Shown: in pieces, positions 6,001 to 27,116 of the stretch | How the letters are laid out: each line of letters opens with the position of its first letter | Position numbering within the stretch: the first letter of the stretch is position 1 | Virus record (IMG/VR): IMGVR_UViG_3300025282_000066 | Coordinates: 1 to 45,490 of that record | DNA length: 45,490 bases | Reading direction: 5' to 3' (one strand) | DNA from: a virus | Taxonomy: Duplodnaviria; Caudoviricetes | Made by a program: the position numbers and the translations under genes | The notes under the pieces: model-generated | What the model was told of the DNA's origin: nothing | Seen by the model: the letters and a program-made list of their open reading frames with translations, nothing else | Databases searched by the model: none

Positions 6001-9000
6001 TCACTCAGAAAGAATGTATAAAGAATTACCTAGAGAAATGGAGATAGAGGTTAACGATGCTAGTGATCAAGAATTAAAATTAAAAGGTAAGGCATCATTG
6101 ATACGTAGTAATGAAGCTAGTAAAAAGACAGGATACCCTATTCAACTATACCATAGAAGTGAGGTAGATGATAGTCGATATATAGACTCAAGTAATCCAA
6201 AGGGGTTTATGTCTACGCAACCTTTATATCAATCCTTACCTTTCCATGATAGAGGAATATTGGCTTTTCAGAGAAGAGCTTTACAGAATAAAGTAGACAG
6301 TCTGTTAGGACCAATTGCGGGTCTTCGAGAAGTTATAGCGCCAATTCCCGGCGTAGATAACTCTCTTGGGTGGGCTTCTCCTTGGAGCGAAAAAACACTA
6401 CCCGCTCGTAGAACAACACTAGCCGAGTATCTACAGCTTTATGGTAAAAATGAAGAGGGAATGTTAGCAGGAACTATAGCAAGAGATTTAGATACTTGGG
6501 CTAGTCGTAGAGGTTTATTAAATGAATTACACGATAAACCTGAATTCTATCCTTATTACTTCTTGATTAGAGAAATTGAAAAAACCTATCAAAGATTTGT
6601 AAAGTATGCTAGATCAGAAATGTCTGAGGAAGAGTTGATATTTAGAAGATCTGAGTGGTTAACTGCTCTCCATAAATTAGACGAGGTATCACGTAATATT
6701 GTTGAGTATGAACACTCTGGTCTAACTTTAGATGGTAAGGCTAGTCTGTTGGCTTTGGTCCGACCTATCCATGATAAAGCTACTTGGAAAGAGATTCTAA
6801 CAAGTACTGTTACCGAAGATCATGCAGAAGGTAAACTTCTTTCACCAACACTAATACACACAGAACTTAAAGCTCCTCTAATGCCAAGTGAAGGTACGCC
6901 TATATTTGAAACCGCGGAAGATAAAGCTTATTGGGATGAGCATATTGGTGAAGCTCATTGGAAAGATATAGTAAATGAATTAACTATAGGGTCTGGTATT
7001 ATCCAAGCCCATGATTTTAATCGTTTCTTAATGGTTCCACTTTACCAGTCCTATATTAGTGAAGTCTTAAAAACATACAAAAGACCCGATGGTACTAAGC
7101 CTTATGCAGATTCTTCTATCTATAAAGATCCTAGAAAGTGGGAAGAAGCGGTAGAAAGACAAGATAGAAAAGAAATTATTAGACGGGCAAAAAATATAGC
7201 GAGAGGCTCAAAAGGTGTGTCGATAATGTTAGATATCTCGGTTGTAGAGTATGCCGATGAAAATAATCCAGATGGTCCTAATCTTGTCAAGCTTATGGTT
7301 GAAAGTGCCGTTGGTCAAACTGTACAAAAAGGAAAAACTAAAACAGAAGTCTCTTTTAATAGTAGACACGCATCAGCTGAAGTAGGCTTTGGTTTCTTAA
7401 GTAGAAGTCCTAGAATATATAAACTTATTGGTGGCAGGTTTAAGATCCATTTAACTCCCGAAGGTGCTCTTAAGTTATTTGGAATTACAGATAATATAAG
7501 ACCTTTAGACGAGTTACAAAATGCTGCTATATCGAATAAAATCTTTGGGGTTAAGTTTGATCAAAACAATGAACCACTTAGGGCTAAGCCTTTACAAGAC
7601 ATAATTAGAGATGCTATTGGTTTTACTACTAGACATCAAATAGAAGAAGCAACTAGAATTAGCGATGCTTTAAACCTAATTGTTAGGCAATCACGGGCCG
7701 ATAAATCTCAAGGTCCTCGTATGATTTCTCATAAACAAGTTACGATAGATCAATTTGGATTAGACGTAGTAGATCTTCACGCTTATAAGACAGGAGAAAT
7801 AGCTCCTCCAGAAGGAAGAACACTTGCTTGGAGAGAAGCTGTTCTCTCACCAATTACAGAATTTCTTCATAGTATAGAAGAAGAAAATCTTTTTAATCCT
7901 TACTTCGATATTCATGCTGAGTTAACCTCTCTTATAAAAAGAGTAAGAGAAGATGTTGGCCCAAGTTATCAACATGCTTTAGGAATCTCTATTGCCCTAT
8001 CCTCCTTAATGATTAATGGGGCTTCAAGAATTCCTTCTGATAGTATGATTATACCCTTCCTTGATCCTCAAATCTACAACACTAGAAGGATAGCCGACAG
8101 CGGTAAAGTCGATATTGATCCCCTTATCAATGAAGCACAGGCCTTATATAGAAAGCTTGTTATTTTCCAAGACTCAGATTCCTTTATTAAGACTTTACCA
8201 GTTTATCACGCTGCGAGAACTTTTGCTTTTGAAATGAGTCTAGATCCCGCTGCTGATATTGAAACTAGTACCGAAGAGGTGTTTATAAACTGGCTTAAGG
8301 AAAAAGGATTATATGAGTTTGATTTAGGTCAGCCAGCGAAAAGCAGTTTCCTTGAATTTGAGGCTGGTCGAGATACTGAACCAAAAATCTATTATAGCTA
8401 TAATCAACATTTAGAAAATTATAAACCCGGCCTGTCTGATGAGGAAAAAAGAAGACAGCTTATCCTGTTGTCTTTAGATGCTGCTCTATCTCATCAAGAA
8501 ACTGCTAACAATCTAAGGGTAGAGTTTGATCAGACTAATCTTGATTCGGAAGAATCAGAGTTAGATACACTTAAGAGTGTATTCTTAGGTAATGTATCTA
8601 AAGACCATGATACGGCTCTGAAATTTGCAGAGACTAGAGATAATATAACTAGACCACATTTAAGAAGAGTATTGAAAAAAATACAGGGTATGGAAGAAAG
8701 AGGAATAGTTAAAGGAAAAGAAACACGATTACTGAGACAACTAATCTTAAACGCTTATGCTATGAATCCTTTGATAGTTAGAGATCTCATGTTTGATTTA
8801 GAAGCCCATTCTATTAAATCTGGTAAAACTGAAGAAGGACAATACTATATTAGATTTGGAGAACGGTTAAAGAGAATAGGAAAGGATCCTCTAGATATTG
8901 TACAAATCTTTGCTCATGAGGTTTCTCATATTGCTAGGGCTAAATTTATCTCAAGCAATTCAGGAGAGTGGGATGCTTTTCAGGCTCTCTTGAGAGGACG

Positions 9001-12000
9001 AGGAAAAGGTCTTGTAAAGAAATTAGTAATGGCATGGCATGGTAATAGATGGAATTCGTCTGCCCAAGAAGAGTATAACAACTATGTAACCAAAGGTCCC
9101 GAAGAATTTATAGCAGCATTGGGACAGTTCTTCTTATTAAAAGATATGTTACCCACAATTAAAAATATGACTACAGAAGAAGCTAAGACTCTCCAAACAG
9201 CTTTGGGGTTTGTGGGCAGGATTATGTCTTTTGTCCGGAATGTATTCTCAGATCTAGATCATGTGTGGTCTCGATTCTTTGTTAGTAATGATGAAGTGAA
9301 TATTTTAATGCATAGATTATTTGGACTAGATATAACAACACCAAACTATAGTCAAGTCTTAGATGTAGAAAATACTGGTCCCCTTACCTTTAATTGGATG
9401 AATAGATTTACTGATGATGATTGGCAACTATCTGAGGGACAACGAGGTACTATGGAAGAAATAGATGCTAGATTTGAAGATGCAGTTGATCATAGAAACA
9501 TATTAGAAATGATGCAAGAAAAAGGTACTATTACCGATGAACAGCTACGTAAGTTAAATAGTCTTCGTAATATGACAGACAGACGTTTAGAAAGCGGGAT
9601 TAGTATTTTTGAATTCTATGACCATCTTCCACATACTATGGCAAAGTTTGGTACCGATGTTAGTATGGGAGACCATACTTGGCAAGTATTAGACCTAGAA
9701 GCTGTATTAGATTCTTCTTTAGGAAACTCCACTGAAATACAACTAGATAGAATAGTTGCTTTCCAGTATGGTGTAAATCAAATGAGACATAAGTTTGGGA
9801 ACCAAATTCAAGATAATGCTGGTGAATTTGCTATGCGTATGAGTAAAGCTTTAGGTAAACTGGGAAGATTTATGGGACTCGGTAGAAATAGAACAGTAGA
9901 TGAAGACCCTATCAGAACCAGAGTACTTAGTGGTATCGCCGGGCATACTGGTAATGAGTATACTTGGGCAGCACCACATATTATTCCTATCTGGTTAACT
10001 ACGCTTATTGATGAGCATATTACTAATACCAGAGGACATTATGATACTCTAGAAGGACTTCCTTCTTTAAGAAAATCTTTAGAAGAAGTAGTCAATGTCG
10101 AAAATGTCTTATTTAGATTACACGGTGTATTACAAAATGAGCTCCTTAGTCCACTCGCTTCTTTTATAAAAGGAGATAACACACCCGGTAAAAAAACCAG
10201 AGAGATTCTCAAGGAAGTAAGTGCTGCTTTTACTTTATTAGTAGAAAACGAAACAGAGACAGATCTAGGATTTTCTGAAGAAACAAAAATTAGATTGGCT
10301 AATCTTAGCCCTAAAAAAAGAGAACTCTTCTATTCTACAATAAAAGAAATGGCACAGGTTATGCGAAGTCTTATGGAAAATATTCAAAAGTCTCGCCAAG
10401 ATTTAGGTGACTGGACAAGTGCAGCTGATTCTTTGATGGGTTACAAACTAAGTCAAGAGATTAAACAAGGGACTAATTCTTCTACTATGTTCGATGCTAT
10501 GAATGAAGAAATACATAACAGGCTATTAGATAATACCCATGACTTTGTAGATCCCTTAACTTTATTTGCCATGAATGCTTTACCCCGTTTCGATACAACA
10601 GAAAACTTAACAGAAGATCTTTTCGGTCCAAAAGGATTGTATGGAAATAAAACAGAACCCTCATCTTTATACGTTCTTTTGATTTCACAATTAGCTAAAA
10701 CTATGGATGAAACCTTTAGTTCTGAAGAAAAGGTATTAAACGCATCTCTTGATCCTGTAAAACAAACAAAGGTTGATGATTTTGTTAGAAAGTTTAAAAC
10801 CTTATTTGAGGATGGAGTTTTAAAAGAAAAGTATCTCTCAGGTTTTAGAATTACTATACAGAAACTAATGAGAGATATGGCTTCTGGAGAAATCACTTGG
10901 TCAAATCTTAATATAGCACATGTGGATAAACTAAAATTTCAATACCATCATTATTTAAAAGAATCTGGTGGTAAAGATGCTACTCATGATATGAGGGTTG
11001 ATAAGAGATTCCAATCGTTGTTCCTTAATAGAGATTCCTTGAGTTTCTTAGAACAGTCTAGAGGAGCTATAGCTTTTGAAATGCCACAGGGACGTATGCC
11101 TTTGTTAGAAGAAAGGTCTTTAACTACTGGGAAAATTTATAATGTAACCCAACTCCATACTCGAAACTTTATGAATCGTGCGTATATGGGACACTACTTA
11201 CCTAATGATGCTTGGTGGATTCCAAAAGTTAGTCAAGCTATTAGAAATCCTATAATTAGAGAAAACCTTACACTACATCCTGTTGAAACTATTAGAAGTC
11301 TAAAGAAGGGTTTGGCAGATACTACACATGAGAGAATGATCCTTCAATACCACTTAGGGATGCGTGGAGACATAGGCCACTTACTTGCTTTGTTTAAGTA
11401 CTTTAATCAGGTGGGAGATTTACATGATATGGCAGGAAATAAAGCTAGTGAGTCTGTTAGAAAAGCCATGACTAAAAGTGTAGAATTCTTAGAACAAAAA
11501 TATGCATTCTTAAGAGGCTTCCAAGAAGAAGGAACATCCTATGGTACTATGGCTGACTGGGCTTTTGAGATGGCTCCTTCAGTTACTAAGATAGCCTTTG
11601 CAGGTAACTTGGGTATTGCTTCTCTTACCGTAGAACATATGATGAATACTTTTGTAACTATGATAGGAGAAAAGAAATTATTAAATGGATTTAGAACAAT
11701 GTTTGCTCCTGTCTTTCATGGTTTATCCAGCGAAGAAACAAAATTAGTAGCAAGTGATATTGCTGATGCTGTAGAAGGAATGACACAAGGCTTCTTACCT
11801 GAGTATGAGCAAGCAGCAAGTGAAGCTGAAGCTGTATTTGGTCAGGATTTTACTAACAAGTGGGCTAGTCAAATGCTGAGATTTCCAAAACATGTTCTTA
11901 GGTCTTCCGCAACAGCTAGAATTATTACATTAAGAAAGGGTATCTACTCCCTTCTTCACAGTAATCCTGCTAAAATAAAAGTACTACTTGATCACATTGA

Positions 12001-13225
12001 AAAGAATCCATTAAAAGAGCCGGGTGATCTAGAAAGAGCCGTAAGAAAATCAAAGATTAGTTGGTGGAGTTATGGAAAAATATTAACGTATCTACAACGA
12101 TCAGGTTTACTGCATCCTGATAGAACAGAAAACTTGGCTGTTGTTTTAGAACTTGGTAATGTGAAAGATAAGTTTTATACTATAGGTAAAGTTGTCTCAC
12201 AACTGTCTGCTAGATTTGATGGTAAATCTGATTCTTATCGAAACTACATGTCAATCCTATCAGCTTTGCGACATGTGGAAAGACAATATTTAAATGAAGT
12301 AGTTGTCTCTCCTAATGCTTTTGATATCTATACAGGCTCTGATAGAAGATCACGAGCAGCAGAAATCTTTAGAAGATTCCCAGTATTATGGGCTTCTCAA
12401 ATGATGATTAGAAGATCTAACAATATGCCATTGCTAGCTTATGGAACCTTTATGGTTTCTATGTTAACTCTAGATATGATCTATATGATGTCTTTACGTC
12501 TAGCAGCTGGAACTTCTTATGAAGATCTAATGAAAGAAATAGAAGACAAGGGCTTTGGAAAGTTTATGTTAACGTATGGAGCTAGATTACCTCTTTGGGG
12601 TAGGTATTATGGTTGGATTGCTGCTGCTGCTGTAGCCCTAAGTAGAGATAATAGAATCGAGGGAGGTTTTGTTCCTGCCGCAGCAATGGCTCAGATACTT
12701 CAAAATATGTACAAATTAGGTATGTCTCCGTGGACTGATGATTATACTCAACAAGATCTAATCAATGCTTCTAGAATTCTCCCCATATTAGGAGATACAC
12801 TAGTAAGATTAAGTGTATATTCTGCTTGGGGAGATCAAATATCTAAGAAGAATCGAAGCAGACGAGGATATGGTAGTCCCTCTTCACAGTTCCAATATAC
12901 ATATACACATATGGGAGTACCTCCAGAATATGATTCAATGTCTTATGAAGCAGTAATGGGCGAGTGGTTTAATGAGATGGGACTAGAGCCAGATTTCCTA
13001 GCCTATGAGAATCAATTCAAGACATTACCGGGAACTAGATCTAATTGGGAGCAGATGGAACAGGAGACCCATATAGACCCTGAGAAGGCTGCGAGAAGAG
13101 ACATGCCCTCCAGACCCTCCGAGATCCTTAGAAGGCCTGAGGCGGGCTCTCAGAGGCTTACAGTGGATCCTATTGAAGCTATCAAAGAAGAGCCGATTCT
13201 AGAGATACCAGAGGAGTTCAGATAA
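2..13225 (+). CDS. Giant polyvalent (probable virion/ejection) protein, 5'-truncated by the window: two ART-PolyVal-like ADP-ribosyltransferase domains, two HExxH zincin-like motifs and a putative T7/N4-type RNA polymerase domain
   Basis: The frame of ORF 95..13225 is open back to base 2 (EATAREGAQTIPVYVNLTNPLRL). ART-like signatures: YDGIVY...VIAFDPANVKSPFNRGTW and YHGT...GLHIT...YARAENPL...GYDSLVY...YIIFNPSHVKSAIANNGDFD. HEGYH at 1073; HEVSH at 8915 followed by EEFIA at 9101. RNAP-like motif A VDRTGSG (4232) and motif B RKVFKVPAMRFIYEG (4595). Confidence 0.8.
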   Translation, partial: EATAREGAQTIPVYVNLTNPLRLEGGALAFTMANVYNESMDAMLVARREGGPALLADKVRAEVKRMSKMEMGDEAAEVYFKFMNSLGYDGIVYRQMVQGEHKSTVVIAFDPANVKSPFNRGTWGLAEPRMLLQSDETFDAQQTEEYLNNHWISKLSDEEQTALGIEWNGRRVEQERGERGELGEDWIPSWIEGVSSEEQLRIQDIDNYFLLKTFQARLEFLKRLNENIAKVEDELTEKAPPKPPEVLTPSLFKKTLSEVLRKFRLGTYKKRHKAIFEAMATVVGGREVLQQLIDNEKLVITLVVKTTEEGLTPFRQPKDYKAFFAPFSLGLKGGTIPGIEMGIDTKLKLNAYAVIAAHEGYHFIWDTKHRNKRLLLRKIWAEKLLDKFSQTETGKALMKKYSDHFDSAVEQGSTINLPILEYQLLLDEPAFQSGKRRGRIRVAYSRQEAALIDKEVYLYHAKRQYLLLIIDLLNEAHSDKKALRDIQEEMGRPLTWKEAKKTFGLRPRTEEFTSRFIQIRDLSTTVFGEDLFSDKQLLTELDFEEARRQGGFAKPLRNSFAYLLIYMRRMEIIKRAGIKIPKKDWSDYVFLKKLLVKAPEYMMNFSTPKVMMQLMENQGLTIEPLTPEIVDFMGETKEKGYFYHGTTAHPDNLTDIFNTSIGAGLHITTNPFVAGRFTEGDYGRVYLLYARAENPLRVRDIDNFKSVGGLATAIADALIPHGTTAYANLLAMRSALKEEILTKITKEWHYRIETKKWSRRKYMNKSSHVDPRILELRTEVIQDIIKSYGYDSLVYLNRGEIRDRRTGKEPENLYNKMAKLRAMEFDRTGEYFSEGRDTRYLHSITDDEFRAEFPEATDSYIIFNPSHVKSAIANNGDFDLNKSSILMQTADLETQHLIDEATAWASWVEGLRSISINAKKFKRTEGKRYTESYRIWGTMPGFFRDIRKGPHITFKPALLDQEEQGTSFADVINHRNEETNYYDIDKVIMMAEYEHTRAVGRLQGWHKVARQDLLEALENDLMAGDAINYFVALEFITRVEKAFRPLYKEAKGRYGFISHLKEDTGEPVFLTNKHDVQAFTEIVRRAIKSRLDKYIASESGHRDLNKLEPILGILGYTRDKDFVSLSIDHVTSMIIKHMGKLTPEGEQIKWSIEAFGNGEIDWAPAVEIGAGLVDLLTGSPLAVQRGIESNVLHNEDIRTEEQDPGGESIRLRQTRRGESNRSAPISLFHLASVVNQYRFMKRINYLLQHDEFTPEQREAVEAWIEKVNSEGTPNPLGFRAGFRVSPHYMGGFLDQVIPSKETLTEWGLTFLLDLPNLAHSVIHDQISVSQNNPLRFRGDLKNFSEDFSHGDDIILPFHWWGEVLSYEQMSPTLEGLSEGLLDYEAARYREWREANPDLSITDLFSVQTHVDRTGSGRWEMKALSLAADPGAIDALVSELKDTHGTKTISKEIKRDGLFNTILTHRGFTEKDLSDHYLGLALEVAQLITSHRNHEIVKALGPMLTAFGQLDGITTVEELIERSETNDIIKTLRKVFKVPAMRFIYEGTMRNFKKEFILANKGKAREAILELGELLGYDFYGKNHEELEALATILYKVGVNNMSIALQEASLGTRKKPSQVSITERGTGISHAMRTAVMKYLSLNRSTDANITLIPELAEGWKAVIKAKSLEDPKSGTGVEAIVVNEETGAEHRVSLDITEISDKPQEADKKNSLIKADEALKLFEAALKKAAIYDFGEDVDFEEAMEKTRERYTNWSKIQAYLKERRNRFLTIGELNELKAMAYPSTPQTDMAVFRGLNMLGAATYQINLERAQLLADAMGIAGFDAEIQLASMMNKNMYFPVGYSTMSDRGYPGLQIMSTLTGIALERAAVRPLRIRDNTTGKMVAFPYKSFEEFIKAKQEAFEATGGVWDKAKLRETFKEFLRDVENAEESLGLYDTADNPFHKLSREDAKKKVEDLITLQQFIWWASYEAPPASVFPDYTTEVSDEALLQELQEDWTSHSERMYKELPREMEIEVNDASDQELKLKGKASLIRSNEASKKTGYPIQLYHRSEVDDSRYIDSSNPKGFMSTQPLYQSLPFHDRGILAFQRRALQNKVDSLLGPIAGLREVIAPIPGVDNSLGWASPWSEKTLPARRTTLAEYLQLYGKNEEGMLAGTIARDLDTWASRRGLLNELHDKPEFYPYYFLIREIEKTYQRFVKYARSEMSEEELIFRRSEWLTALHKLDEVSRNIVEYEHSGLTLDGKASLLALVRPIHDKATWKEILTSTVTEDHAEGKLLSPTLIHTELKAPLMPSEGTPIFETAEDKAYWDEHIGEAHWKDIVNELTIGSGIIQAHDFNRFLMVPLYQSYISEVLKTYKRPDGTKPYADSSIYKDPRKWEEAVERQDRKEIIRRAKNIARGSKGVSIMLDISVVEYADENNPDGPNLVKLMVESAVGQTVQKGKTKTEVSFNSRHASAEVGFGFLSRSPRIYKLIGGRFKIHLTPEGALKLFGITDNIRPLDELQNAAISNKIFGVKFDQNNEPLRAKPLQDIIRDAIGFTTRHQIEEATRISDALNLIVRQSRADKSQGPRMISHKQVTIDQFGLDVVDLHAYKTGEIAPPEGRTLAWREAVLSPITEFLHSIEEENLFNPYFDIHAELTSLIKRVREDVGPSYQHALGISIALSSLMINGASRIPSDSMIIPFLDPQIYNTRRIADSGKVDIDPLINEAQALYRKLVIFQDSDSFIKTLPVYHAARTFAFEMSLDPAADIETSTEEVFINWLKEKGLYEFDLGQPAKSSFLEFEAGRDTEPKIYYSYNQHLENYKPGLSDEEKRRQLILLSLDAALSHQETANNLRVEFDQTNLDSEESELDTLKSVFLGNVSKDHDTALKFAETRDNITRPHLRRVLKKIQGMEERGIVKGKETRLLRQLILNAYAMNPLIVRDLMFDLEAHSIKSGKTEEGQYYIRFGERLKRIGKDPLDIVQIFAHEVSHIARAKFISSNSGEWDAFQALLRGRGKGLVKKLVMAWHGNRWNSSAQEEYNNYVTKGPEEFIAALGQFFLLKDMLPTIKNMTTEEAKTLQTALGFVGRIMSFVRNVFSDLDHVWSRFFVSNDEVNILMHRLFGLDITTPNYSQVLDVENTGPLTFNWMNRFTDDDWQLSEGQRGTMEEIDARFEDAVDHRNILEMMQEKGTITDEQLRKLNSLRNMTDRRLESGISIFEFYDHLPHTMAKFGTDVSMGDHTWQVLDLEAVLDSSLGNSTEIQLDRIVAFQYGVNQMRHKFGNQIQDNAGEFAMRMSKALGKLGRFMGLGRNRTVDEDPIRTRVLSGIAGHTGNEYTWAAPHIIPIWLTTLIDEHITNTRGHYDTLEGLPSLRKSLEEVVNVENVLFRLHGVLQNELLSPLASFIKGDNTPGKKTREILKEVSAAFTLLVENETETDLGFSEETKIRLANLSPKKRELFYSTIKEMAQVMRSLMENIQKSRQDLGDWTSAADSLMGYKLSQEIKQGTNSSTMFDAMNEEIHNRLLDNTHDFVDPLTLFAMNALPRFDTTENLTEDLFGPKGLYGNKTEPSSLYVLLISQLAKTMDETFSSEEKVLNASLDPVKQTKVDDFVRKFKTLFEDGVLKEKYLSGFRITIQKLMRDMASGEITWSNLNIAHVDKLKFQYHHYLKESGGKDATHDMRVDKRFQSLFLNRDSLSFLEQSRGAIAFEMPQGRMPLLEERSLTTGKIYNVTQLHTRNFMNRAYMGHYLPNDAWWIPKVSQAIRNPIIRENLTLHPVETIRSLKKGLADTTHERMILQYHLGMRGDIGHLLALFKYFNQVGDLHDMAGNKASESVRKAMTKSVEFLEQKYAFLRGFQEEGTSYGTMADWAFEMAPSVTKIAFAGNLGIASLTVEHMMNTFVTMIGEKKLLNGFRTMFAPVFHGLSSEETKLVASDIADAVEGMTQGFLPEYEQAASEAEAVFGQDFTNKWASQMLRFPKHVLRSSATARIITLRKGIYSLLHSNPAKIKVLLDHIEKNPLKEPGDLERAVRKSKISWWSYGKILTYLQRSGLLHPDRTENLAVVLELGNVKDKFYTIGKVVSQLSARFDGKSDSYRNYMSILSALRHVERQYLNEVVVSPNAFDIYTGSDRRSRAAEIFRRFPVLWASQMMIRRSNNMPLLAYGTFMVSMLTLDMIYMMSLRLAAGTSYEDLMKEIEDKGFGKFMLTYGARLPLWGRYYGWIAAAAVALSRDNRIEGGFVPAAAMAQILQNMYKLGMSPWTDDYTQQDLINASRILPILGDTLVRLSVYSAWGDQISKKNRSRRGYGSPSSQFQYTYTHMGVPPEYDSMSYEAVMGEWFNEMGLEPDFLAYENQFKTLPGTRSNWEQMEQETHIDPEKAARRDMPSRPSEILRRPEAGSQRLTVDPIEAIKEEPILEIPEEFR

Positions 13226-13299
13226 ATCGACTAGGGGGTCACGAATTTACACGGGGCATAGGATAGGATAGCTTGTTTGCTATTCCCCCCGTACCCCCT

Positions 13300-13320
13300 T
13301 GTTGCTTAGCAACAGAAAGG
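13300..13320 (+). promoter_or_regulatory. Hairpin-plus-RBS element 1 (TGTTGC-TTA-GCAACA-GAAAGG)
   Basis: 6-bp inverted repeat with a 3-nt loop, directly fused to the Shine-Dalgarno of the ATG at 13330. One of four similar elements. Confidence 0.5.
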
Positions 13321-13329
13321 AGATCCGCA

Positions 13330-13524
13330 ATGGCGTATCTCAAGATGACACGAGATGAATACTCTCGTGTCCATGGTGTCTTTGCCGCAGCCGGTGGCAG
13401 GGATGTCAAGGGTGTGTCCGCTGAATTGGAGCGGGCCCACACGCATATCGTAACGCTGGGCGTGAGGCTAGACCTTACGCTCGTCGTTCAGCAGAAGCTT
13501 GCCCAAGAGGCAGGACTCCGCTGA
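13330..13524 (+). CDS. Hypothetical early protein (64 aa)
   Basis: GAAAGGAG RBS before ATG 13330, in frame with track ORF 13273..13524. Confidence 0.7.
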   Translation: MAYLKMTRDEYSRVHGVFAAAGGRDVKGVSAELERAHTHIVTLGVRLDLTLVVQQKLAQEAGLR

Positions 13525-13563
13525 AACCATGGGCTAAGCTACGGCCCTCAACGGTAGCATGAA

Positions 13564-13584
13564 GTCCCATTAGGGACAGAGAGG
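13564..13584 (+). promoter_or_regulatory. Hairpin-plus-RBS element 2 (GTCCC-ATTA-GGGAC-AGAGAGG)
   Basis: 5-bp stem followed by a purine-rich RBS before ATG 13592. Confidence 0.45.
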
Positions 13585-13591
13585 TTCTATT

Positions 13592-13954
13592 ATGAACACC
13601 ATGACCATAACCATTATGAGTCTGTGGGACGCATCAACACATGAGTATGATGTTATCACAGATGAGTGGGATCAGCATATTAAGCCAGAAGTTCTTCTGG
13701 AGAAAGTGTTCGTCCGACAACAGGATGACACTAAAGATGTGCCTAACATACCTTCGATGTGTGCAGGTGATATCGTTAGTGTTAGCACTATTCCGTATAG
13801 TGCGATGCTCGACGGTTTCATGGACAGAAAGAAAGTAGAAAGGAGTGCTCGGTTTCTTTGTACGGCAAACGGATGGAAGAGATTGACCCTTGAGCTCTTC
13901 TACCAGTGGACAACGTCTTCTTCGCTAGAACGAATGCTTCTAGCACGCAAATAG
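13592..13954 (+). CDS. Hypothetical early protein (120 aa)
   Basis: ORF with RBS. The PSMCAGDIV...FLCTANGW segment resembles small phage YodL-like proteins, but the resemblance is weak. Confidence 0.7.
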   Translation: MNTMTITIMSLWDASTHEYDVITDEWDQHIKPEVLLEKVFVRQQDDTKDVPNIPSMCAGDIVSVSTIPYSAMLDGFMDRKKVERSARFLCTANGWKRLTLELFYQWTTSSSLERMLLARK

Positions 13955-13985
13955 GCACAGCTGTCAGCCTTCAATGGCAGCACAT

Positions 13986-14010
13986 TGTCCCTCGTCGGGA
14001 CAGAAAGGGA
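13986..14010 (+). promoter_or_regulatory. Hairpin-plus-RBS element 3 (TGTCCC-TCGTC-GGGACA-GAAAGGGA)
   Basis: 6-bp stem followed by an RBS before ATG 14012/14018. Confidence 0.45.
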
Positions 14011-14017
14011 TATGATC

Positions 14018-15790
14018 ATGAAGATCAAGATTCCCAACAAGACCGTGGCATCCCTCAAGGAAACCACGGACGCAGCCACGGAGCTGTGCTTCGAGGCTCA
14101 CTCGGAGTACGTGGCTGATCTCTACAATCGTGGTAGAGAAGCAGATGAGTTCGTGACTCGTCTGAGGAAGGATGTCCTGTATACCACAGGGCTGACCTTT
14201 AGCGTGCCATTGGCACGTAAGACACACTCGTCCATCTTGGAGGCGTACCTCAAGTACAAGCCCAAGAAGGAGGGTGCATACCCGTTCTACACCTTGGAGC
14301 CAAGCGGCAAGTTGCCTATCGTGACTCGGAATCCGAGCATGGAGGTGGGGGCCGACTGGTCCCAATCCGTCAAGTACTTCGGTACGTGTGGGCATCTGGT
14401 CGATGGCCGGATGCTGGAAGCGGTGTCTATCCACCGCAATGCTCTGCTCCACAGTGGAGCAGATGATGCAACGGATGATGCCGAGAATTATCTGCCACTA
14501 CACGTGTTGCAGATTCTGGCTAAGATGTATGGAGAGGAACAGGAATGCTTCGTCTCCTACCACCAACTCCAAGAGTCAGGGCGGATGATAGAAGAGCTCA
14601 GGGGTGGGGGCTCTGCTAACAACAAGATCTCACGAGCGGTGCTCCTGGATACAAACTTCGTGGTTTGTGATAAGGAGAACCTTGAGATCCTTGAGAACTG
14701 TATCCGAGCCAAGTACGGTGTCTCAAGCAAGATCAAGGACTGGGCATCACGAGTCCTTAATAAATACGATGTGTCAGATCACCACAAGTGCGAGGAAATC
14801 AATCTCGCCTGCTGTTGGAGAGACATCATCACCAAGGGTGGGTCTCATCACACGGTTGAGATCGATGCCCATACCAGTGGCATGGTTCACATGCTCATGC
14901 AAGTGGGACTGTGGATTCGACGAGACATCTGTGCTCGTACTAAGGGATGGGAGAAGCTCTATACTCGCATCGCTAGGATGATCAGGATGTCCTGCCCATG
15001 GGCTGGGCATCTACCCATGAGTGAGATCATGGCAATCGCTAAGAAGGTGATGTCACCTTCCATGTACGGTGGTGGGTCCACTGCCATCGTACCGCAGTTC
15101 TTCAAGAATGTTAAGCATGGAGATGGAAACTGGGTCTTCCCATCTCGCAGCTTGGTAGTTCCCGACTACTACCAGCCATTGTTCAATGAGACCATAAAGG
15201 TCTATGACAAGGGTGTTGGTCATCATGTAGATATCCTGTCGGATACTCAAGATGGGCTCACATGCTTCGACAAGGAAGTCACAAAGAAGTACTCCCAGTA
15301 CTTCCGCAAGTGCTTCCCATTTGTGAAGGGTAGAGGTAAGGAAGATCCCGGACTGTTCGGAAAGTTCATCTCTCATGGTGAGGCCAATCCGAATGGATTG
15401 ATGAAGCTTGCGGGTATGCAGGTACAAATCCATCCGTTCACAGAAGACAAGCTTCGTAAGGTAGGCGTAACAGCCTACGATGCAGAAGGTTACAGGCACA
15501 GCACTGGTGTCTATCCTCTGGTCGAGAGCAGCTACACTGACCTCATGGCGAAGCATACTCACCTACTGGACAGCTACCAGATGGCCTTGTTCGGATGCAT
15601 GGCCGAAGAAGAGGGCGTGTGTGTACGTCCGATCCTCGATGCTGTCAAGGTTCCAGCCGGGAAACTCAAGTGGGCCTTAGAGGCAGCATCACAAACATTC
15701 CTGCATGTCCATGCCAAGCCTCGCTTCCCCGTAGGAACCGAAGGCTTCAAGGCATGGCAAGGCGAAGCCCCCAGCGTTTGGGGCTTCTGA
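14018..15790 (+). CDS. Compact, divergent T7-family single-subunit RNA polymerase-like protein
   Basis: Motif A VEIDAHTSG (Asp at 14864), motif B KKVMSPSMYGG (15041), AKHTHLLDS matching T7 PNFVHSQD (15551), motif C PILDAV (Asp at 15638), in T7 RNAP order and spacing. Start moved from TTG 13985 to the RBS-supported ATG at 14018 (14012 also possible). Confidence 0.7.
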   Translation: MKIKIPNKTVASLKETTDAATELCFEAHSEYVADLYNRGREADEFVTRLRKDVLYTTGLTFSVPLARKTHSSILEAYLKYKPKKEGAYPFYTLEPSGKLPIVTRNPSMEVGADWSQSVKYFGTCGHLVDGRMLEAVSIHRNALLHSGADDATDDAENYLPLHVLQILAKMYGEEQECFVSYHQLQESGRMIEELRGGGSANNKISRAVLLDTNFVVCDKENLEILENCIRAKYGVSSKIKDWASRVLNKYDVSDHHKCEEINLACCWRDIITKGGSHHTVEIDAHTSGMVHMLMQVGLWIRRDICARTKGWEKLYTRIARMIRMSCPWAGHLPMSEIMAIAKKVMSPSMYGGGSTAIVPQFFKNVKHGDGNWVFPSRSLVVPDYYQPLFNETIKVYDKGVGHHVDILSDTQDGLTCFDKEVTKKYSQYFRKCFPFVKGRGKEDPGLFGKFISHGEANPNGLMKLAGMQVQIHPFTEDKLRKVGVTAYDAEGYRHSTGVYPLVESSYTDLMAKHTHLLDSYQMALFGCMAEEEGVCVRPILDAVKVPAGKLKWALEAASQTFLHVHAKPRFPVGTEGFKAWQGEAPSVWGF

Positions 15791-15798
15791 TATACCTC

Positions 15799-15818
15799 GT
15801 CGCTTAGCGACAGAAAGG
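15799..15818 (+). promoter_or_regulatory. Hairpin-plus-RBS element 4 (GTCGC-TTA-GCGAC-AGAAAGG)
   Basis: 5-bp stem with a TTA loop, fused to the RBS before ATG 15827. Confidence 0.5.
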
Positions 15819-15826
15819 ATAGCACC

Positions 15827-16336
15827 ATGGCTATCAAGACCATCATCGTTCCTACTCGTTCTTCACAGAAGTACTCCAATGCGTTGGAGTGTCACGCTGC
15901 CAGTCACCCCACCATGGGTGAGGGCAGGCTGTACTTCTACCTGTCCAAGGACAAGAAGAGTCGGGTTGCCCGCTTCTTCCCCAAGGACTGGGAGAATGGA
16001 TGCTTGTATGTCCGAGCAACCGATGGCTTCCCTGTTGACAAGACAGTGAAAGAGATGGGTGAACACATGGGTCTTGACCATGTGTTGGGACAGATTAACA
16101 TCCCGTCCAACTTCAGGATCTCCAGTACCTGTAAGTTCTACCTCATGGACAGCCCTGAGTTTGAGGATAACACCCTCACGTTCAGCCTTAGGTGGAACAA
16201 GATGACTAAGCAATTCACATGTCCCTTCGAGATGGATCCCACATGGGATGAGGAAGTACTGGGTACTGAATGCTTCGAAGCTATTCAGAGATTTGTCTGG
16301 CAGCAATGGCACGGCTGTGGACTGTATGGTGGCTGA
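15827..16336 (+). CDS. Hypothetical protein (169 aa)
   Basis: ORF with GAAAGGA RBS and the same GC3-rich codon style as the neighbouring early genes. Confidence 0.8.
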   Translation: MAIKTIIVPTRSSQKYSNALECHAASHPTMGEGRLYFYLSKDKKSRVARFFPKDWENGCLYVRATDGFPVDKTVKEMGEHMGLDHVLGQINIPSNFRISSTCKFYLMDSPEFEDNTLTFSLRWNKMTKQFTCPFEMDPTWDEEVLGTECFEAIQRFVWQQWHGCGLYGG

Positions 16337-16386
16337 TGATTTGACCGGGGGGTTACTACCTTGGGCTACCGCCTGAGGTAGAAATT

Positions 16387-16418
16387 TTGACACCTCCTCC
16401 GGGGGGATTGATATAAAT
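16387..16418 (+). promoter_or_regulatory. Possible host sigma70-type promoter
   Basis: TTGACA at 16387 and TG-A-TATAAA at 16409-16417. The 19-nt spacer is non-optimal. Confidence 0.3.
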
Positions 16419-16600: not shown

Positions 16601-16704
16601 ATGAACTATGGCCCTAGGGGGCACGCTATGCCCCTACGGGCGGAGTGATTATCTTATTAGATAGTCCCATTACTAATAATGGTGATGGAATAGGAGACCT
16701 GACA

Positions 16705-16899: not shown

Positions 16900-16924
16900 G
16901 TCTGCTGTTTTCCCGACCACTATC

Positions 16925-16963
16925 ACACCCTCGGTGTCCTTAGGGGCATCGAGGGTGTTTTTC
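16925..16963 (+). terminator. Rho-independent terminator
   Basis: ACACCCTCGGTGTCC-TTAG-GGGCATCGAGGGTGT stem (with G-U pairs) followed by a T run. Confidence 0.75.
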
Positions 16964-17388
16964 TGTTGACGATGGGGTATGTCCGATACAGCGTGGCTAC
17001 CCCCGTCCCTTAGTTACATCCGCCAAGGTGGGTGTACCTAAGGGGCGTAAGCCTGTCCTGAGCATGGAGTGTAAAAGTTGACTCCTTAAAGACCATTAAA
17101 CTGCTCATCTCTCGCACTTGCCTAAGCAAGCAACCAACTGCCAGTAACTGTAATGGTTATGTGGGATTCCTGTTGATTCAACAGCGGCCCATCAATACTT
17201 GAGGTGATAAGTTCATTTGAACCCACACTCAAGGACCGACAGACATCCGATGTCAGAGAGATATGCGGTATACAAATCACAAGCTCTGTGTCATTGCGGT
17301 TCAGGGAATCCGAGTTAACAAAATTCCCCCGAAGTTCCGGCTACTGGCGTAGCGTGGAGTAGCAGAGACATCTCTCTCACCAAAGAGT

Positions 17389-17476
17389 AGGATCTGTTGC
17401 CCTTGATGGGGTGGTGCCCATCTAAAGGTCAAAATATAAGACCCCACGAGAGGTTCGATTCCTCTCTGGTCCTCCA
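17389..17476 (+). ncRNA. tRNA-like structure (non-canonical)
   Basis: T-arm GAGAGG-TTCGATT-CCTCTC; AGGATC/GGTCCT acceptor-like pairing ending in CCA; internal GATGGG/CCCATC hairpin; no canonical 7-nt anticodon loop. Confidence 0.4.
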
Positions 17477-17581
17477 ATTCAGTAAATGCTACAACAAGCA
17501 TTGCCCTGCTCCTCTGGGTTATGCGAGGACATGGCCCTGTTATGATAGCAGGGAGAGCACATGAATCTACAGCTCATCTTC

Positions 17582-17663
17582 GGGGGTGACATGGAAAGTC
17601 TCCGCAGATATGGCCGCATGTCGGCACCTGCGGACTACGAGGGTTCGAATCCCTCCACCTCCA
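17582..17663 (+). ncRNA. Miniature tmRNA-like RNA (tRNA-like domain only)
   Basis: Acceptor GGGGGTG/CACCTCC-A with G3-U70; stemless D-loop ACATGGAAAGTC; TCCGCAG/CTGCGGA helix; T-arm GAGGG-TTCGAAT-CCCTC. Confidence 0.6.
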
Positions 17664-17685
17664 TTGTGCACTGTCGTGAACTGGC

Positions 17686-17783
17686 CCGACATTAAATAAC
17701 TTGACCACCCTGAGCTTACCGGCAGAGGGGACAAATATATTGAGTGGTTATACTGGAGATACGGGTTCGAGTCCCGTCGTTGG
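17686..17783 (+). ncRNA. tRNA-like structure or degenerate tRNA
   Basis: T-arm ACGGG-TTCGAGT-CCCGT (17761-17777); CCGAC/GTTGG closing pairing; TGACCAC/GTGGTTA helix. Confidence 0.3.
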
Positions 17784-18022
17784 ATAGGCGAGCCTCTAAT
17801 ATGAGGAATATAACTCGACTTATTCTAACCGTGATGTATACAGCGATGGGGTGCTCACCCCCTATAGCTCAATTGGCTAGAGCACCAGTATATCCTCTCA
17901 ATCCCTTCCATTGGATACATCCACCAACAATCGTAAGAAACTTCGATGGTGACATCAAAGCAGAAGTTGGGTGAGTCTTTATTAGACTCACGGGATGGAT
18001 CCAATAACTCAGGAGATCTAAC

Positions 18023-21271: not shown

Positions 21272-21310
21272 GGTCTCACTTGTCTCCCCTTCGGGGGAGC
21301 AGGTGGACCA
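21272..21310 (+). promoter_or_regulatory. Long stem-loop with cUUCGg tetraloop (processing, stabilising or terminator element)
   Basis: CACTTG-T-CTCCCC-TTCG-GGGGAG-CAGGTG directly after the stop codon; no U tract. Confidence 0.5.
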
Positions 21311-21477: not shown

Positions 21478-21756
21478 ATGAAAAAAGACGTTGATCAAAA
21501 CTTTGGTGGATCTTTCAATGCCCACAAACATTGGAAAAAGTTACGTGAGAAGCATCGTAAAAAGGAAGCTCAAGAAGCAAGGGGTATATTTAGCCGAGCC
21601 CAACCAGAGACCTATCAACCCAACAACCAAACAATAGAAGGTTCTGAAAGAATAATATCAAAAGAATTGTATGATCTTAATTATGAGCTTGCTTTTGGTA
21701 GAATTACTAAAGAAGAATACGAACAAAGGAGATCAGAACTTGATTTGGGAGAGTGA
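21478..21756 (+). CDS. Hypothetical protein
   Basis: AAGGA RBS. The C-terminal GRITKEEYEQRR resembles a SHOCT-like helix. Confidence 0.7.
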   Translation: MKKDVDQNFGGSFNAHKHWKKLREKHRKKEAQEARGIFSRAQPETYQPNNQTIEGSERIISKELYDLNYELAFGRITKEEYEQRRSELDLGE

Positions 21757-24184
21757 AACTGAAGACGTTCAGTTAGACCGACGTAATGGTCAGATTATAT
21801 ACGAGCAGTCCATGCTGGAATATGGTCGGCACAAATACTGGAAGGACTACGAACGGGCTCCTGATGAAGGAATACCTGAGCAATGTCTTATTGATTCCTC
21901 TATCAAAGAACTAGAAAATAAATACCAAGAGTGGATTGATCGGGTATGTAGTGCTCCTAAAGTTCCTAGTTGGGTCTACCCCTTGATGGAATTAGGCTCA
22001 CGTAAGATGGCTGATATAACTATACGTGCTGTCATACGTCATTGGTTTTCTCCCTCCTATTGGAATGGAAGTTACAACGAACATATACACACACCTCCAG
22101 TAGCTCAAAAGATAGCGTGTCAGATTGCAAATGATGTATCTGATATTATTGCCTACCAACAAGCCAAAGAAGCAAACTACACCGACTGGAAGAGACAATC
22201 TAAGTTCATTAAGAACTGGACTCTAAAGAGATGCCGAGCATTCTCCAAGAAAATGCAAACCAATGTCAAATTAAGTACTAGGGCCAAGCATTCTTTCGGA
22301 CATCACATGCTAGAGATAGCCTGTAGTTCTAATATTATTGAGATGAGAAAAGAAAAGATAAAAACTAGATCAGGTAAGTTCCGTACTTGTAGTTTTGTTG
22401 AGTTCCATCCAGAGGTACTCAAAGAGTTACATAAGAGACACGATATTCTCCAGAATTCTACCTTAGTTTACAGACCAATGCTTATTCCTCCAATAGAACA
22501 TACTCTCCTTGCTTCTGGAGGATACATAACAAGAAATCTCAGAAAACCTGTAGTACAACGATATCAAAACAATTACTTTGGAGACATGCCTAAGCAGCAG
22601 AAGTTCTCAGAGCCATCAGAACTTGTTTTACGAGGCCTGAATGGCATGCAAAAAACTGAATGGACTGTGGATAAAAAGGTATATGAGGTAATGAAGAATC
22701 TGTTTGAGAACAATACTCAAATAGGTAATCTTCCGCCTTATGGGTTTGATGAGTTCATGTATTCCGAAGACTACCCAAAAGGTGGACCCAAAGAAGAACA
22801 AGCCAAATGGCTACAGATTCGAGAAGAATGTTGGGGTAATTGGTACAAATCTGAACAAGCCAGAGGACGTATGTTAGTACGGCTTGCTTTAGCCGAAGAC
22901 CTAATGAGATGGGATTACTTCTATCATGTATATACCTTAGACTTCCGGGGCCGGGCTTACACCACATGTGAATTACTATCACCACAATCCTCAGATTTTG
23001 ATCGTGGATTGATTAAGTTTGCCGTCAGAAAAAAGCTAGATAAATTTGGTATCTATTGGCGTAAAGTTAATATTGCCAACTTATTTGATCAAGACAAAGG
23101 CACCTTTGATGAACGTGTTCAATGGGTAGAAGATAATCATGATATGCTACTTAGAATTGCTCAAGATCCTTATGAGAATAAAGAATGGGTTGATGATAGA
23201 AAGAAAAAGAATAAATCTTTTCGTAGACTTCAAGCAATCTTTGATTATGCTTTAGAAGATAACTGCTCCGACATATCAGTTCAACTTGACGGAAAGTGTA
23301 ATGGGAATCAACATTGGAGCTCCATTATGAGAGATCCTGATATTGCAAAACTTACAAGTGTGTCACCCGATGACAGGCCACAAGATTTATATCAATTTGT
23401 AGCCGATGGGGTCACCAGTTATTGTAAGATGCATATTAATGAGAACCCTTGGTATGGACAGTTCCTAGACTATTGGAAAGATGGGATAAATAGGAACGTA
23501 ACTAAACGATCTACTATGTGTGAGGCCTATGGGCTTACGTTCTATGGCATCCAAAAATACATACGCTTAGAGGGTCATGTAGATTGGGTACCGCGTGAGT
23601 CCCGAGGAGGAGCCATAGTCGAACTTGCTAGGGCAACTCAAGCAGCTCTAAATACAACCTTAAGTAGTAGTAATTCCGGAAAAGAATATCTTAAAGAAAT
23701 ATCTAATGTTGCTTCTGATCTTAATCAACATCTATGTTGGACTACACCCTCTGGCTTCAAAGTAGTACACTACTATACTGAAATTCAGACTCGTAGGTCT
23801 ATAGCCAAGTTATTTAATAGCCGTGAACTACACTTCTTTGTGAAGACAGACATTCCAAATGCTAAAGCTGCAAAGCAAGCTATTTCACCTAATTATATTC
23901 ACTCACTCGATGCTGCCCATATGTTTCTCGTACTAGCTGCTTTGCTTTCACAAGGTATAACAGATTTTTGTATGGTACATGATTCCTATGGATGTCATGC
24001 TAATGATGTCCCTTTAATGGCTAAGATTACCAGAGAAGAATTTGCAGGCATGCATCGCAATAATCAACTACAGTTCTTTAAAGAAGATATAGAAAAATCT
24101 TTGGGGGTAAACCTCCCTGATGTTCCAGCACAGGGAAACTTTAATGTAGACTCTGTGCTGGACTCACAATATTTCTTTGCATAA
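21740..24184 (+). CDS. T7-type DNA-directed RNA polymerase (gp1-like)
   Basis: PMLIPP, DFRGRAY, motif A QLDGKCNGNQH, motif B RNVTKRSTMCEAYG, WTTPSGF, SPNYIHSLDAAH, motif C VHDSYG, C-terminal YFFA. Start uncertain: TTG 21740 follows AAGGAG, while the track gives 21671. Confidence 0.97.
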   Translation: MIWESETEDVQLDRRNGQIIYEQSMLEYGRHKYWKDYERAPDEGIPEQCLIDSSIKELENKYQEWIDRVCSAPKVPSWVYPLMELGSRKMADITIRAVIRHWFSPSYWNGSYNEHIHTPPVAQKIACQIANDVSDIIAYQQAKEANYTDWKRQSKFIKNWTLKRCRAFSKKMQTNVKLSTRAKHSFGHHMLEIACSSNIIEMRKEKIKTRSGKFRTCSFVEFHPEVLKELHKRHDILQNSTLVYRPMLIPPIEHTLLASGGYITRNLRKPVVQRYQNNYFGDMPKQQKFSEPSELVLRGLNGMQKTEWTVDKKVYEVMKNLFENNTQIGNLPPYGFDEFMYSEDYPKGGPKEEQAKWLQIREECWGNWYKSEQARGRMLVRLALAEDLMRWDYFYHVYTLDFRGRAYTTCELLSPQSSDFDRGLIKFAVRKKLDKFGIYWRKVNIANLFDQDKGTFDERVQWVEDNHDMLLRIAQDPYENKEWVDDRKKKNKSFRRLQAIFDYALEDNCSDISVQLDGKCNGNQHWSSIMRDPDIAKLTSVSPDDRPQDLYQFVADGVTSYCKMHINENPWYGQFLDYWKDGINRNVTKRSTMCEAYGLTFYGIQKYIRLEGHVDWVPRESRGGAIVELARATQAALNTTLSSSNSGKEYLKEISNVASDLNQHLCWTTPSGFKVVHYYTEIQTRRSIAKLFNSRELHFFVKTDIPNAKAAKQAISPNYIHSLDAAHMFLVLAALLSQGITDFCMVHDSYGCHANDVPLMAKITREEFAGMHRNNQLQFFKEDIEKSLGVNLPDVPAQGNFNVDSVLDSQYFFA

Positions 24185-25380: not shown

Positions 25381-25558
25381 TGACTTAAAGATTGCAGATG
25401 CAGTCGAAGAAGAATCTGATGAGATGTTCATCAAGGTATCAGACCTTGAGAACTTTATGCAGCAGATTAGTTTTACCTTGATGTCAATTGTTAATGGCAT
25501 CGATCAAACGATGAAAGAACTCAAAAGGAGTACACCTAGTGATGACAACAAAGATTGA
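25373..25558 (+). CDS. Hypothetical protein
   Basis: GGAG RBS; overlaps both neighbours. Confidence 0.65.
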   Translation: MDNDLKIADAVEEESDEMFIKVSDLENFMQQISFTLMSIVNGIDQTMKELKRSTPSDDNKD

Positions 25559-26048
25559 GGCATTTACCACCGAAACCGTTGAGGTTCAGTGGGGCCACCT
25601 ACATCAGCCCGATGAAAAGTTCGGTGCTGATTCAGCAAATCATAATATCAGTATCCTTGTAGACAAGGTTTTGCAAAAGAAGCTTGACCAACTCCTCAAG
25701 GAATCTGGTGCTACTAAGATCAACGGTATGCGTACCGACGATGATGGTCGAGTAATCCTTAAGGCCAAGTCAAAGACTCTGGTCAAGAAAGGTGAGAAAA
25801 CCTTCCCCTGTCGGGATGCCTCGGCTGCAAAGACCGATGTCCTTCCCTTCGGAGGTGACACTGTTCGTCTGCGTCTGGCCCCTGCGGTCTTGGCTCGTGA
25901 CGGTAGCATGTCCTTGTATCTTAATGGTTGTCAAATCATTGAGAAGAACAGCGACGATTTCGATACCACTGGTGGCTTTGAAGCTACCGCTGGCTATACA
26001 AATCCAATCGACACGGATCCAACCAACGTGGATGATCTACCCATCTGA
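25539..26048 (+). CDS. Single-stranded DNA-binding protein (T7 gp2.5-like)
   Basis: WGHLHQPDEKF, GGDTVRL, SLYLNGCQIIE, acidic tail DDLPI; position after the RNAP matches T7 synteny. Confidence 0.8.
   Translation: MMTTKIEAFTTETVEVQWGHLHQPDEKFGADSANHNISILVDKVLQKKLDQLLKESGATKINGMRTDDDGRVILKAKSKTLVKKGEKTFPCRDASAAKTDVLPFGGDTVRLRLAPAVLARDGSMSLYLNGCQIIEKNSDDFDTTGGFEATAGYTNPIDTDPTNVDDLPI

Positions 26049-26965: not shown

Positions 26966-26975
<10 letters not shown>
26427..26975 (+). CDS. Truncated citrate synthase / citryl-CoA lyase-like protein
   Basis: ATLGGLHAP (cf. GPLHGG), VPGWGS...DP (cf. GFGH...DPR), FPNAACY (cf. PNVDFY), GRIEAW (cf. R..GW). Start 26427 or 26415. Confidence 0.65.
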
Positions 26976-27038
<63 letters not shown>

Positions 27039-27041
27039 TTA

Positions 27042-27115: not shown

Positions 27116-27116
27116 T

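Follow-up and report, generated by a model that had tools for sequence, protein, structure and literature searches.

What are four short hairpins, each fused to a ribosome-binding site, doing in front of four consecutive genes of a marine phage, and what reads them? The question is raised by the IMG/VR record IMGVR_UViG_3300025282_000066. The window analyzed here is this whole stretch of 45,490 nucleotides. It is the partial genome of an uncultured T7-like phage seen in marine metagenomes. The hairpins stand between positions 13300 and 15818, in a block that also encodes a miniature RNA polymerase (RNAP). This regulatory cassette is real and conserved, and it is tied to the miniature polymerase in a known phage group. 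From sequence, our leading answer is that the four hairpins may be promoters in DNA-hairpin form, joined directly to the ribosome-binding site and used by the 592-aa polymerase of the block. We give this reading a probability of about 45%.

Four hairpins with a constant 3' part

A preliminary description of this DNA had placed a hairpin before each of four genes, and all four are present there, on the + strand. Hairpin 1, TGTTGC-TTA-GCAACA (6 bp, loop TTA), has its stem-loop at 13300-13314. With the following AGAAAGG it forms a unit at 13300-13320, before a 64-aa open reading frame (ORF; 13330-13524, +). Hairpin 2, GTCCC-ATTA-GGGAC (5 bp, loop ATTA), lies at 13564-13577 and continues into AGAGAGG (unit 13564-13584), before a 120-aa ORF (13592-13954, +). 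Neither ORF has a family match. The position of the 64-aa ORF differs between relatives, and homologues of the 120-aa ORF occur in the related loci L009 and L013. Hairpin 3, TGTCCC-TCGTC-GGGACA (6 bp, loop TCGTC), occupies 13986-14002 and, with AGAAAGG, 13986-14008. It precedes the polymerase gene. Hairpin 4, GTCGC-TTA-GCGAC (5 bp, loop TTA; stem-loop 15799-15811, unit with AGAAAGG 15799-15818), precedes a 169-aa ORF. None of the four is terminator-like on the + strand. The preliminary description called these genes early; that timing is inferred.

The exact 9-mer ACAGARAGG occurs four times in both strands of the window, each time directly after a hairpin. We then counted Watson-Crick hairpins of at least 5 bp, with loops of 3-5 nt, that end at AGARAGG. 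Such a hairpin is found at 4 of the 5 AGARAGG sites of the module and at none of the 12 elsewhere on the + strand; the - strand has an abutting hairpin at 1 of 8 sites. Dinucleotide shuffling of the module, repeated 2,000 times, gave 1,986 sequences without a hairpin-AGARAGG unit, 14 with one and none with more. The 9-mer alone, with one mismatch allowed, is not enriched in the window (24 found, 25.2 expected).

Eight related loci, duplicates set aside, keep the block (L002, L003, L004, L005, L008, L009, L012 and L013). Their polymerases form three lineages, at 80-100%, 35% and 30% identity. Together with the four of the window, they give 27 AGARAG(G/T) sites in front of block ORFs of at least 45 aa. 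Descent within three lineages links these sites, so that they cannot be counted as independent. Among them are 18 distinct hairpins, and the claim that stems differ while pairing is kept holds for them. All have 5-7 Watson-Crick pairs and loops of 3-5 nt, partly by design, since the hairpin finder sought Watson-Crick stems. The stem has at least 6 bp in 8 of the 18, and the loop has 3-4 nt in 16. Hairpin 1 has the counterparts TGTTGCT-TAG-AGCAACA (L003) and TGTGGC-TCA-GCCACA (L002). Hairpin 4 is replaced by GTCAC-TTA-GTGAC, ATCCC-GTTA-GGGAT, TACCCT-CAC-AGGGTA or TGAGCC-AAA-GGCTCA.

On the 3' side the sequence hardly changes. AGAAAGG is identical at 25 of the 27 sites, across unrelated stems, and in 26 the stem closes at the first base of this heptamer. 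The constant part had been described as ACAGA(A/G)AGG. AGAAAGG stands, but the leading AC belongs to the foot of the stem and varies together with its pairing partner (L005, L012). The spacer AGAA is thus fixed between the stem and AGG, and AGG lies 7-9 nt ahead of the start codon.

AGAA is no usual part of a Shine-Dalgarno site in this phage. It precedes none of the 23 ordinary AGG-type sites found when 28 other genes of the window were examined. The spacing from AGG to ATG tracks the bases 3' of AGG, with 9 nt after AGGag in 8/8 cases and 7 nt after AGGtt in 4/6. Since the spacing is set on that side, the 5' AGAA needs a different role. None of the module genes has a sigma-70 consensus ahead of it (5 weak sites in the region, 6.9 expected), and no multi-copy T7-type promoter is among the 20 largest repeat families of the window.

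A miniature polymerase as candidate reader

The third gene of the block (14012-15790, +) encodes a T7-family single-subunit RNAP of 592 aa, or 590 aa from the second ATG at 14018, without most of the N-terminal domain. The ORF has no direct match in Pfam or PHROGs, and none in the PDB. Direct BLASTP against the 837-aa canonical RNAP of the same phage and phmmer against the PDB also gave no match; only the family profile succeeded. The family counts eight homologues of 569-609 aa (P0010 and P0011 were excluded as spurious, and no viral loci were obtained for P0006, P0007 and P0008). Its profile matches mitochondrial RNAP with E 9e-5. Two family members give weak PF00940 scores, and the Atlas features of the enzyme fall in PF00940 clusters at 0.93-0.95. 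Across 9 aligned homologues, the catalytic-motif residues R191, D285, K344, Y352-G353, H517, D520 and D543 are invariant, and they follow one another as the T7-family motifs do.

In an alignment with the 837-aa canonical RNAP, the small polymerase misses most of the N-terminal region and retains a stretch at the position of the specificity loop. About 190 residues precede its DxxGR-equivalent motif, against more than 400 in the canonical enzyme. Its fold model has a predicted local distance difference test score (pLDDT) of 31.7, too poor to count either way. The protein has no match in the prokaryote genome collection or among GenBank phages.

The 169-aa ORF (15827-16336, +) follows the polymerase, and a gene of 166-169 aa stands there in all three lineages. 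It has no family match; its best PDB profile match, to interferon gamma (E 0.0013), is not credible. This conserved partner is a candidate polymerase cofactor. The RNAPII of phage N4, with 673 aa among the smallest of the family, requires a cofactor that binds single-stranded DNA (PMC4496689).

The nearest published arrangement is that of phage LUZ7. Its early starts, made by the virion RNAP, are at a G 13-14 bp from the hairpin centre, and its middle starts, made by a truncated RNAPII, lie about 15 bp away from hairpins that are GC-rich and have loops of 3-4 nt (PMC9163698). In our set, the distance from the loop centre is 12, 12.5 or 13 nt to the first G of GG and 13-14 nt to the second, in 26 of the 27 sites. 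This is a geometric fit and not a mapped start. Both systems have a short GC-rich hairpin with a small loop and a G at 12-14 nt from its centre (PMC9163698). Likewise, in both the polymerase is of the T7 family, shortened at its N-terminus and accompanied by a small partner gene; in LUZ7 these are RNAPII and Drc, and the LUZ7 middle promoters are read with a cofactor that binds single-stranded DNA (PMC9163698; PMC7145618). They differ in several points. The present genome is T7-like and has a normal RNAP besides the small polymerase, which is a single 592-aa chain. Stems are often of only 5 bp, against at least 6 in the LUZ7 middle promoters, and loops reach 5 nt. The start region would be the Shine-Dalgarno itself, and the LUZ7 starts are mapped, whereas ours are read from sequence (PMC9163698).

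The preliminary description had proposed a different reader. It saw N4-like promoters used by a virion polymerase hidden in the giant protein encoded just before the block. The hairpin-promoter idea survives as the leading reading; its N4 determinants and the giant-protein RNAP find no support, and we regard this version as very improbable. The window holds the C-terminal 4,376 of the 5,825 aa of this polyvalent protein (95-13225, +), with an ART-PolyVal domain as the only Pfam match and HExxH motifs. N4-like virion RNAP modules are known from proteins of this architecture (PMC5512222). Four giant proteins of the marine group AG-10.1 are reported with PF00940 (PMC12361551), and the block may sit at a genome end, on a weak hint from contig depth. 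Nevertheless, the 4,376 aa gave no RNAP match in Pfam, PHROGs or the PDB. The same result came from a 4-sequence profile against the PDB, from Atlas on giant residues 1700-2750, and from a T7-family hidden Markov model (HMM) on 9 giant sequences, including the full-length P0012. Motif scans found neither motif A nor DxDGD. The N-terminal 1,449 aa, outside the window, were covered by precomputed Pfam, one HMM and motif scans only. A fold model of residues 1780-2700 (pLDDT 42.4, no Foldseek match) is too poor to decide, and the negative searches do not prove that a polymerase domain is absent. The relatives P0012-P0016 of the giant protein gain and lose domains; P0014 has an RNase H-like domain that is absent in the window.

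The hairpins themselves do not follow the N4 rule. N4 promoters require a template C-GNA-G triloop, -8G, four template As and +1C (PMC4496689). The triloop is present in 1 of the 18 distinct hairpins and in none of the four of the window. Measured with the N4 ruler, -8G occurs in 2 of these four, and +1 is a template T in all of them. The likeness to the N4 promoters P1-P3 lies elsewhere: a 5-7-bp stem whose non-conserved bases are free if pairing is kept, 4 nt (here AGAA) from a 5-bp stem to AGG, and a possible place near the genome end (PMC4496689). The differences are the missing conserved template G-N-A triloop, a spacer that is purine-rich on the top strand and not opposite four template As, an A and not G at +1, and no virion RNAP domain detected (PMC4496689). 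So far as these features tell, membership in the N4 class fails, whereas a likeness in mechanism does not. The reader is more likely the module's own 592-aa polymerase than the giant protein.

A fifth covarying hairpin, found after the fact, follows an AT-rich stretch at 16618-16640 (+). It has 6 bp and the loop CGCTA, and TACGGG comes next. Its stems are GGGGCA, GTGGCA, GAGGCA and GGGCTC, with the same loop, in the window, L003, L004, L005 and L002. The GGG stands at the equal distance, and no Shine-Dalgarno adjoins it. It is a candidate promoter for the next unit. Two further intergenic GC-rich hairpins, at 17971-17991 and 21284-21299 (+), have GG at 12-14 nt from the loop centre; they lie before a small-gene array and before the genes that precede the 837-aa RNAP. 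Strong terminator-like stems with T tails occur at 16925-16958 (+) of the window and at 841-868 (+) of L008. They presumably resemble T7's terminator for the phage polymerase.

Predicted upstream pseudoknots and the alternatives to a promoter

Hairpins 2 and 3 are the 3' half of a longer element of about 55 nt, which the preliminary description overlooked. Its 5' half is a predicted H-type pseudoknot. The first (13531-13558, +) pairs GGGC with GCCC and has a 6-bp stem with one bulge and the loop TCAA. The second (13953-13981, +) pairs AGGC with GCCT and has a 7-bp stem with one top-strand T-G pair, also with TCAA. The layout is NGGY, 2-3 nt, a 6-7-bp stem with a loop starting RCCY, and then TCAA. 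On 13 distinct copies, 99% of 203 cells are paired in this model and 9 pairs show two-sided change. Changes on both sides affect 2 of the 4 pairs of the short stem and 6 of the 7 of the long one. None of 500 shuffles scored as high, and slid models reached 25-42%. The tool warns that relatedness may inflate this covariation test. In the short stem, GGGC/GCCC gives way to AGGC/GCCT or GGGT/ACCC. In the long stem, G-U cells occur twice on the top strand and A-C cells never, an indication that the sense strand folds.

Rfam covariance models gave no match over 13530-13590 or 13950-14010, with E up to 5. A covariance model of the longer element found no copy in the window outside the block. A loose pattern scan returned 38 stretches; 3 are from this phage group, and the others lack the pseudoknot. 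The hammerhead, pistol and HDV-like (hepatitis delta virus) ribozymes were rejected: the linker is variable, the order of stems is different and Rfam has no match.

The pseudoknot brings in a close rival. The units could be RNA leaders on a polycistronic transcript that begins at a left-end element of the block, where they would stabilize 5' ends, mark processing sites or act as a translational operator. We hold it to be almost as probable as the promoter reading. The preliminary description had named mRNA leaders as its alternative. The AGG in Shine-Dalgarno register and the RNA-like pseudoknot uphold that thought, while a role in opening the Shine-Dalgarno found no support. An RNA leader accounts for the two-sided changes in both stems, for the top-strand G-U cells and for an unconstrained loop sequence. 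H-type RNA pseudoknots obey a geometric rule of loop length, and the lengths here (2-3 nt over the 6-7-bp stem, 4 nt over the 4-bp stem) fit it on the top strand only. On the other hand, the predicted accessibility of the Shine-Dalgarno exceeds that with shuffled upstream sequence at just 13 of 26 sites (means 0.62 and 0.60), and on this null result a hairpin that keeps the site open was rejected. A pairing of the pseudoknot loop with the Shine-Dalgarno was rejected as well, 7 of 13 copies being mismatched at one pair. An RNA leader explains the invariant AGAA and the fixed distance from stem to GG only by descent. The pseudoknot type tracks the upstream gene (5/5 for the 64-aa gene), no Rfam family matches, and about 10 nt upstream of an element of L008 lies the end of a strong terminator-like stem (z -5.1), a point that also speaks for the promoter reading.

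Several points also weigh against the promoter reading. AGG is in Shine-Dalgarno register, 7-9 nt from ATG at 26 of 27 sites (6-12 nt, mostly 9-10, in other genes), so a start at AGG or GG leaves a leader of 9-12 nt, with almost no Shine-Dalgarno at AGGtt or AGGct. As DNA, the hairpins have little stability (-2.2 to -5.5 kcal/mol), and folding on the template strand brings no advantage over the top strand. Their extrusion from duplex is therefore doubtful without a helper. Loops vary in length (3-5 nt) and in sequence, and less than half of the stems reach 6 bp. The fixed distance from stem to GG could simply mirror common descent. The same element, with hairpin 3 identical, precedes polymerases that are only 30% identical (L012 and L013). 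Three ORFs, the first in L008 and the first and second in L012, do without a hairpin and have an ordinary Shine-Dalgarno. The pseudoknot probably means that the upstream sequence folds as RNA. Finally, the putative promoter of the polymerase gene would need the polymerase itself, so that packaging or another start must be assumed. The promoter and RNA-leader readings are compatible, because read-through transcripts would contain the structures.

A third explanation comes from gene shuffling. The units might persist chiefly as short stretches of homology at which genes are swapped; the structure and the ribosome-binding site would then be passengers. Or the base of the hairpin might be the cut of a nuclease or recombinase. 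The elements called PeSLs in the T4-type phages RB49 and phi1 are alike: repeated intergenic stem-loops with a Shine-Dalgarno, before small variable genes, at shuffling seams (PMC2839356). Gene order at the seams fits such exchange. In the window the 64-aa gene comes before the 120-aa gene, and in L009 it comes after the homologue of the latter. Additional genes stand at seams in L003, L004 and L008. In L013, the 120-aa family and the element of the window are joined to the 30%-identical polymerase. The spacer after AGAAAGG moves with the downstream gene, as the pseudoknot type does with the upstream one. However, stems diverge with pairing kept, whereas recombination needs identity and not pairing, and neither Pfam nor PHROGs recognized an integrase or recombinase in the module. 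PeSLs also carry a sigma-70 promoter, missing before the block genes, and their stem-loop serves as a terminator; here no U-tract follows the hairpins and a pseudoknot is added (PMC2839356). As the main reason for the units, shuffling or cutting is improbable.

If the hairpins are promoters for the 592-aa polymerase, the following steps can be proposed. A hairpin would form on the template strand, perhaps aided by the 169-aa partner or by a host single-stranded DNA-binding protein (SSB). The polymerase would measure from the base of the stem and initiate at AGG or GG, and the 5' end of the transcript would be the Shine-Dalgarno core. Longer read-through transcripts would use the same AGG for ribosome binding. 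The pseudoknot upstream of two units would be an RNA structure that closes or protects the transcript of the preceding gene. The repeated units may double as recombination seams. Two more steps are weakly inferred: the block may be part of a terminal repeat, at the end that enters first, and the polymerase may be packaged from late read-through or first made off the left-end element. The full picture joins these parts. A stand-alone 590-aa polymerase, smaller than the 673-aa RNAPII of N4, encoded in the first-entering terminal repeat and delivered or made first, would read loop-tolerant hairpins from the Shine-Dalgarno on, in swappable one-gene cassettes closed by an RNA pseudoknot. Taken as a whole, it is rather unlikely.

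The block within the phage genome

The block with the hairpins and the mini-polymerase spans about 13230 to 16410. Its GC content is 0.50-0.53, against 0.33-0.43 for the preceding giant gene. At third codon positions (GC3), its four genes have 0.47-0.65, and the giant gene and six measured core genes 0.26-0.44. The T7-like core of the window (Pfam, PHROGs) comprises primase-helicase, family A DNA polymerase, portal, scaffold and capsid, and the canonical 837-aa RNAP is encoded at 21671-24184 (+; PF00940, E 6e-77).

By gene layout, and not by a core-gene tree, the phage fits the published marine group AG-10.1 of the Autographiviridae. In 23 members of this group, the giant gene is followed by an extra RNAP of about 650 aa (PMC12361551). 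The shared layout is a giant protein, then a smaller extra RNAP amid small ORFs, ahead of the typical RNAP (PMC12361551). Here the extra RNAP is smaller (592 aa), and the giant, with 5,825 aa, exceeds the published range of 3,274-5,566. The group is said to be without SSB, and the window has a phrog_112 Gp2.5-like match at 25539-26048 (E 3.4e-7) (PMC12361551).

In 6 of 8 runs, contigs that cover little beyond the block have about 2-2.5 times the depth of the flanks. The depths of block and flank are 55 and 27-29 in X9, 44 and 16-19 in X7, 35 and 14-20 in X12, 17.9 and 5-7 in X1, 10-11.5 and 5-6.7 in X13, and 7-10 and about 5 in X14. In X4 and X2 the block is inside long contigs, and X2 fits a doubling poorly (28 against 25.5-27). 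Contig depth is not copy number; the runs may come from a single campaign, and part of the excess could be due to GC bias or a sibling strain. These depths are a hint of a terminal repeat of about 4 kb that begins near a conserved left element. With such a repeat, the genes of the block would be the first to enter and one copy would stand behind the giant late gene.

The left-end element (13228-13299, +) consists of GGGGTCACGAATTTAC at 13235-13250, a variable inner hairpin and then CCCCCCGTACCCC. It is found in the window, L002, L003, L008 and L012, with one copy only in the window. Its predicted fold is a long stem stacked on hairpin 1. The element is a candidate genome terminus or first promoter. 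Its 16-mer, extended to about 20 bases, also occurs in L015 (6001-6016), an unrelated 78-kb phage contig without a mini-polymerase; this may be chance. The 3' end of the module (16340-16410, +) is structured, with G-U-containing stems (fold z -3.4; 1 of 200 shuffles equally good). Related folds have z -2.6 in L012 and -0.9 in L002. This end is a candidate transcript end.

Beyond the block, the window presents other features. A cluster of tRNA-like RNAs at 16900-18000 (+) was overlooked by ARAGORN, and the region varies between strains. Within it are a YrlA-like RNA (17733-17916, E 0.05) and a weak tRNA-Sec-like one (17389-17473). An element like transfer-messenger RNA (tmRNA) at 17582-17666 (+) matches RF00023 with 39 bits and E 3e-13, under the gathering score. 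It has both ends of the tRNA-like domain and only 38 nt between them, hence no tag reading frame, and variant copies occur in several runs. It could be an SmpB decoy. Further on are a citrate-synthase-like ORF with a weak Pfam match (26415-26975), a sulfotransferase (30367-31020), and tRNA-Arg(TCT), tRNA-Leu(TAA) and tRNA-Met (26966-27190). The Arg and Leu tRNAs read AT-rich codons, which suggests that the GC content of the host is higher than that of the phage core. A 648-aa ORF after the portal gene has two internal repeat pairs at 40408-41097 (214 nt, 81%; about 100 nt, 80%).

Literature searches for the hairpin elements found no description of them and led to the AG-10.1 paper only (PMC12361551). 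The words 'promoter' and 'hairpin' are absent from its main text (PMC12361551). Within these searches the cassette is undescribed, and it is a variant of the hairpin-promoter or PeSL-like design.

The small extra polymerase of these widespread marine phages had already been noted; the hairpins give it a concrete candidate template. This template can be tested with synthetic oligonucleotides and one recombinant protein, and a phage culture is unnecessary. If the RNA reading is true, the covarying pseudoknot-hairpin leader would be a phage RNA motif without an Rfam match. If the promoter reading is true, the enzyme would rank with the smallest single-chain RNA polymerases that are promoter-specific, which is of interest for transcription in vitro, and transcription from hairpin promoters would extend from the N4-like phages to the T7 lineage.

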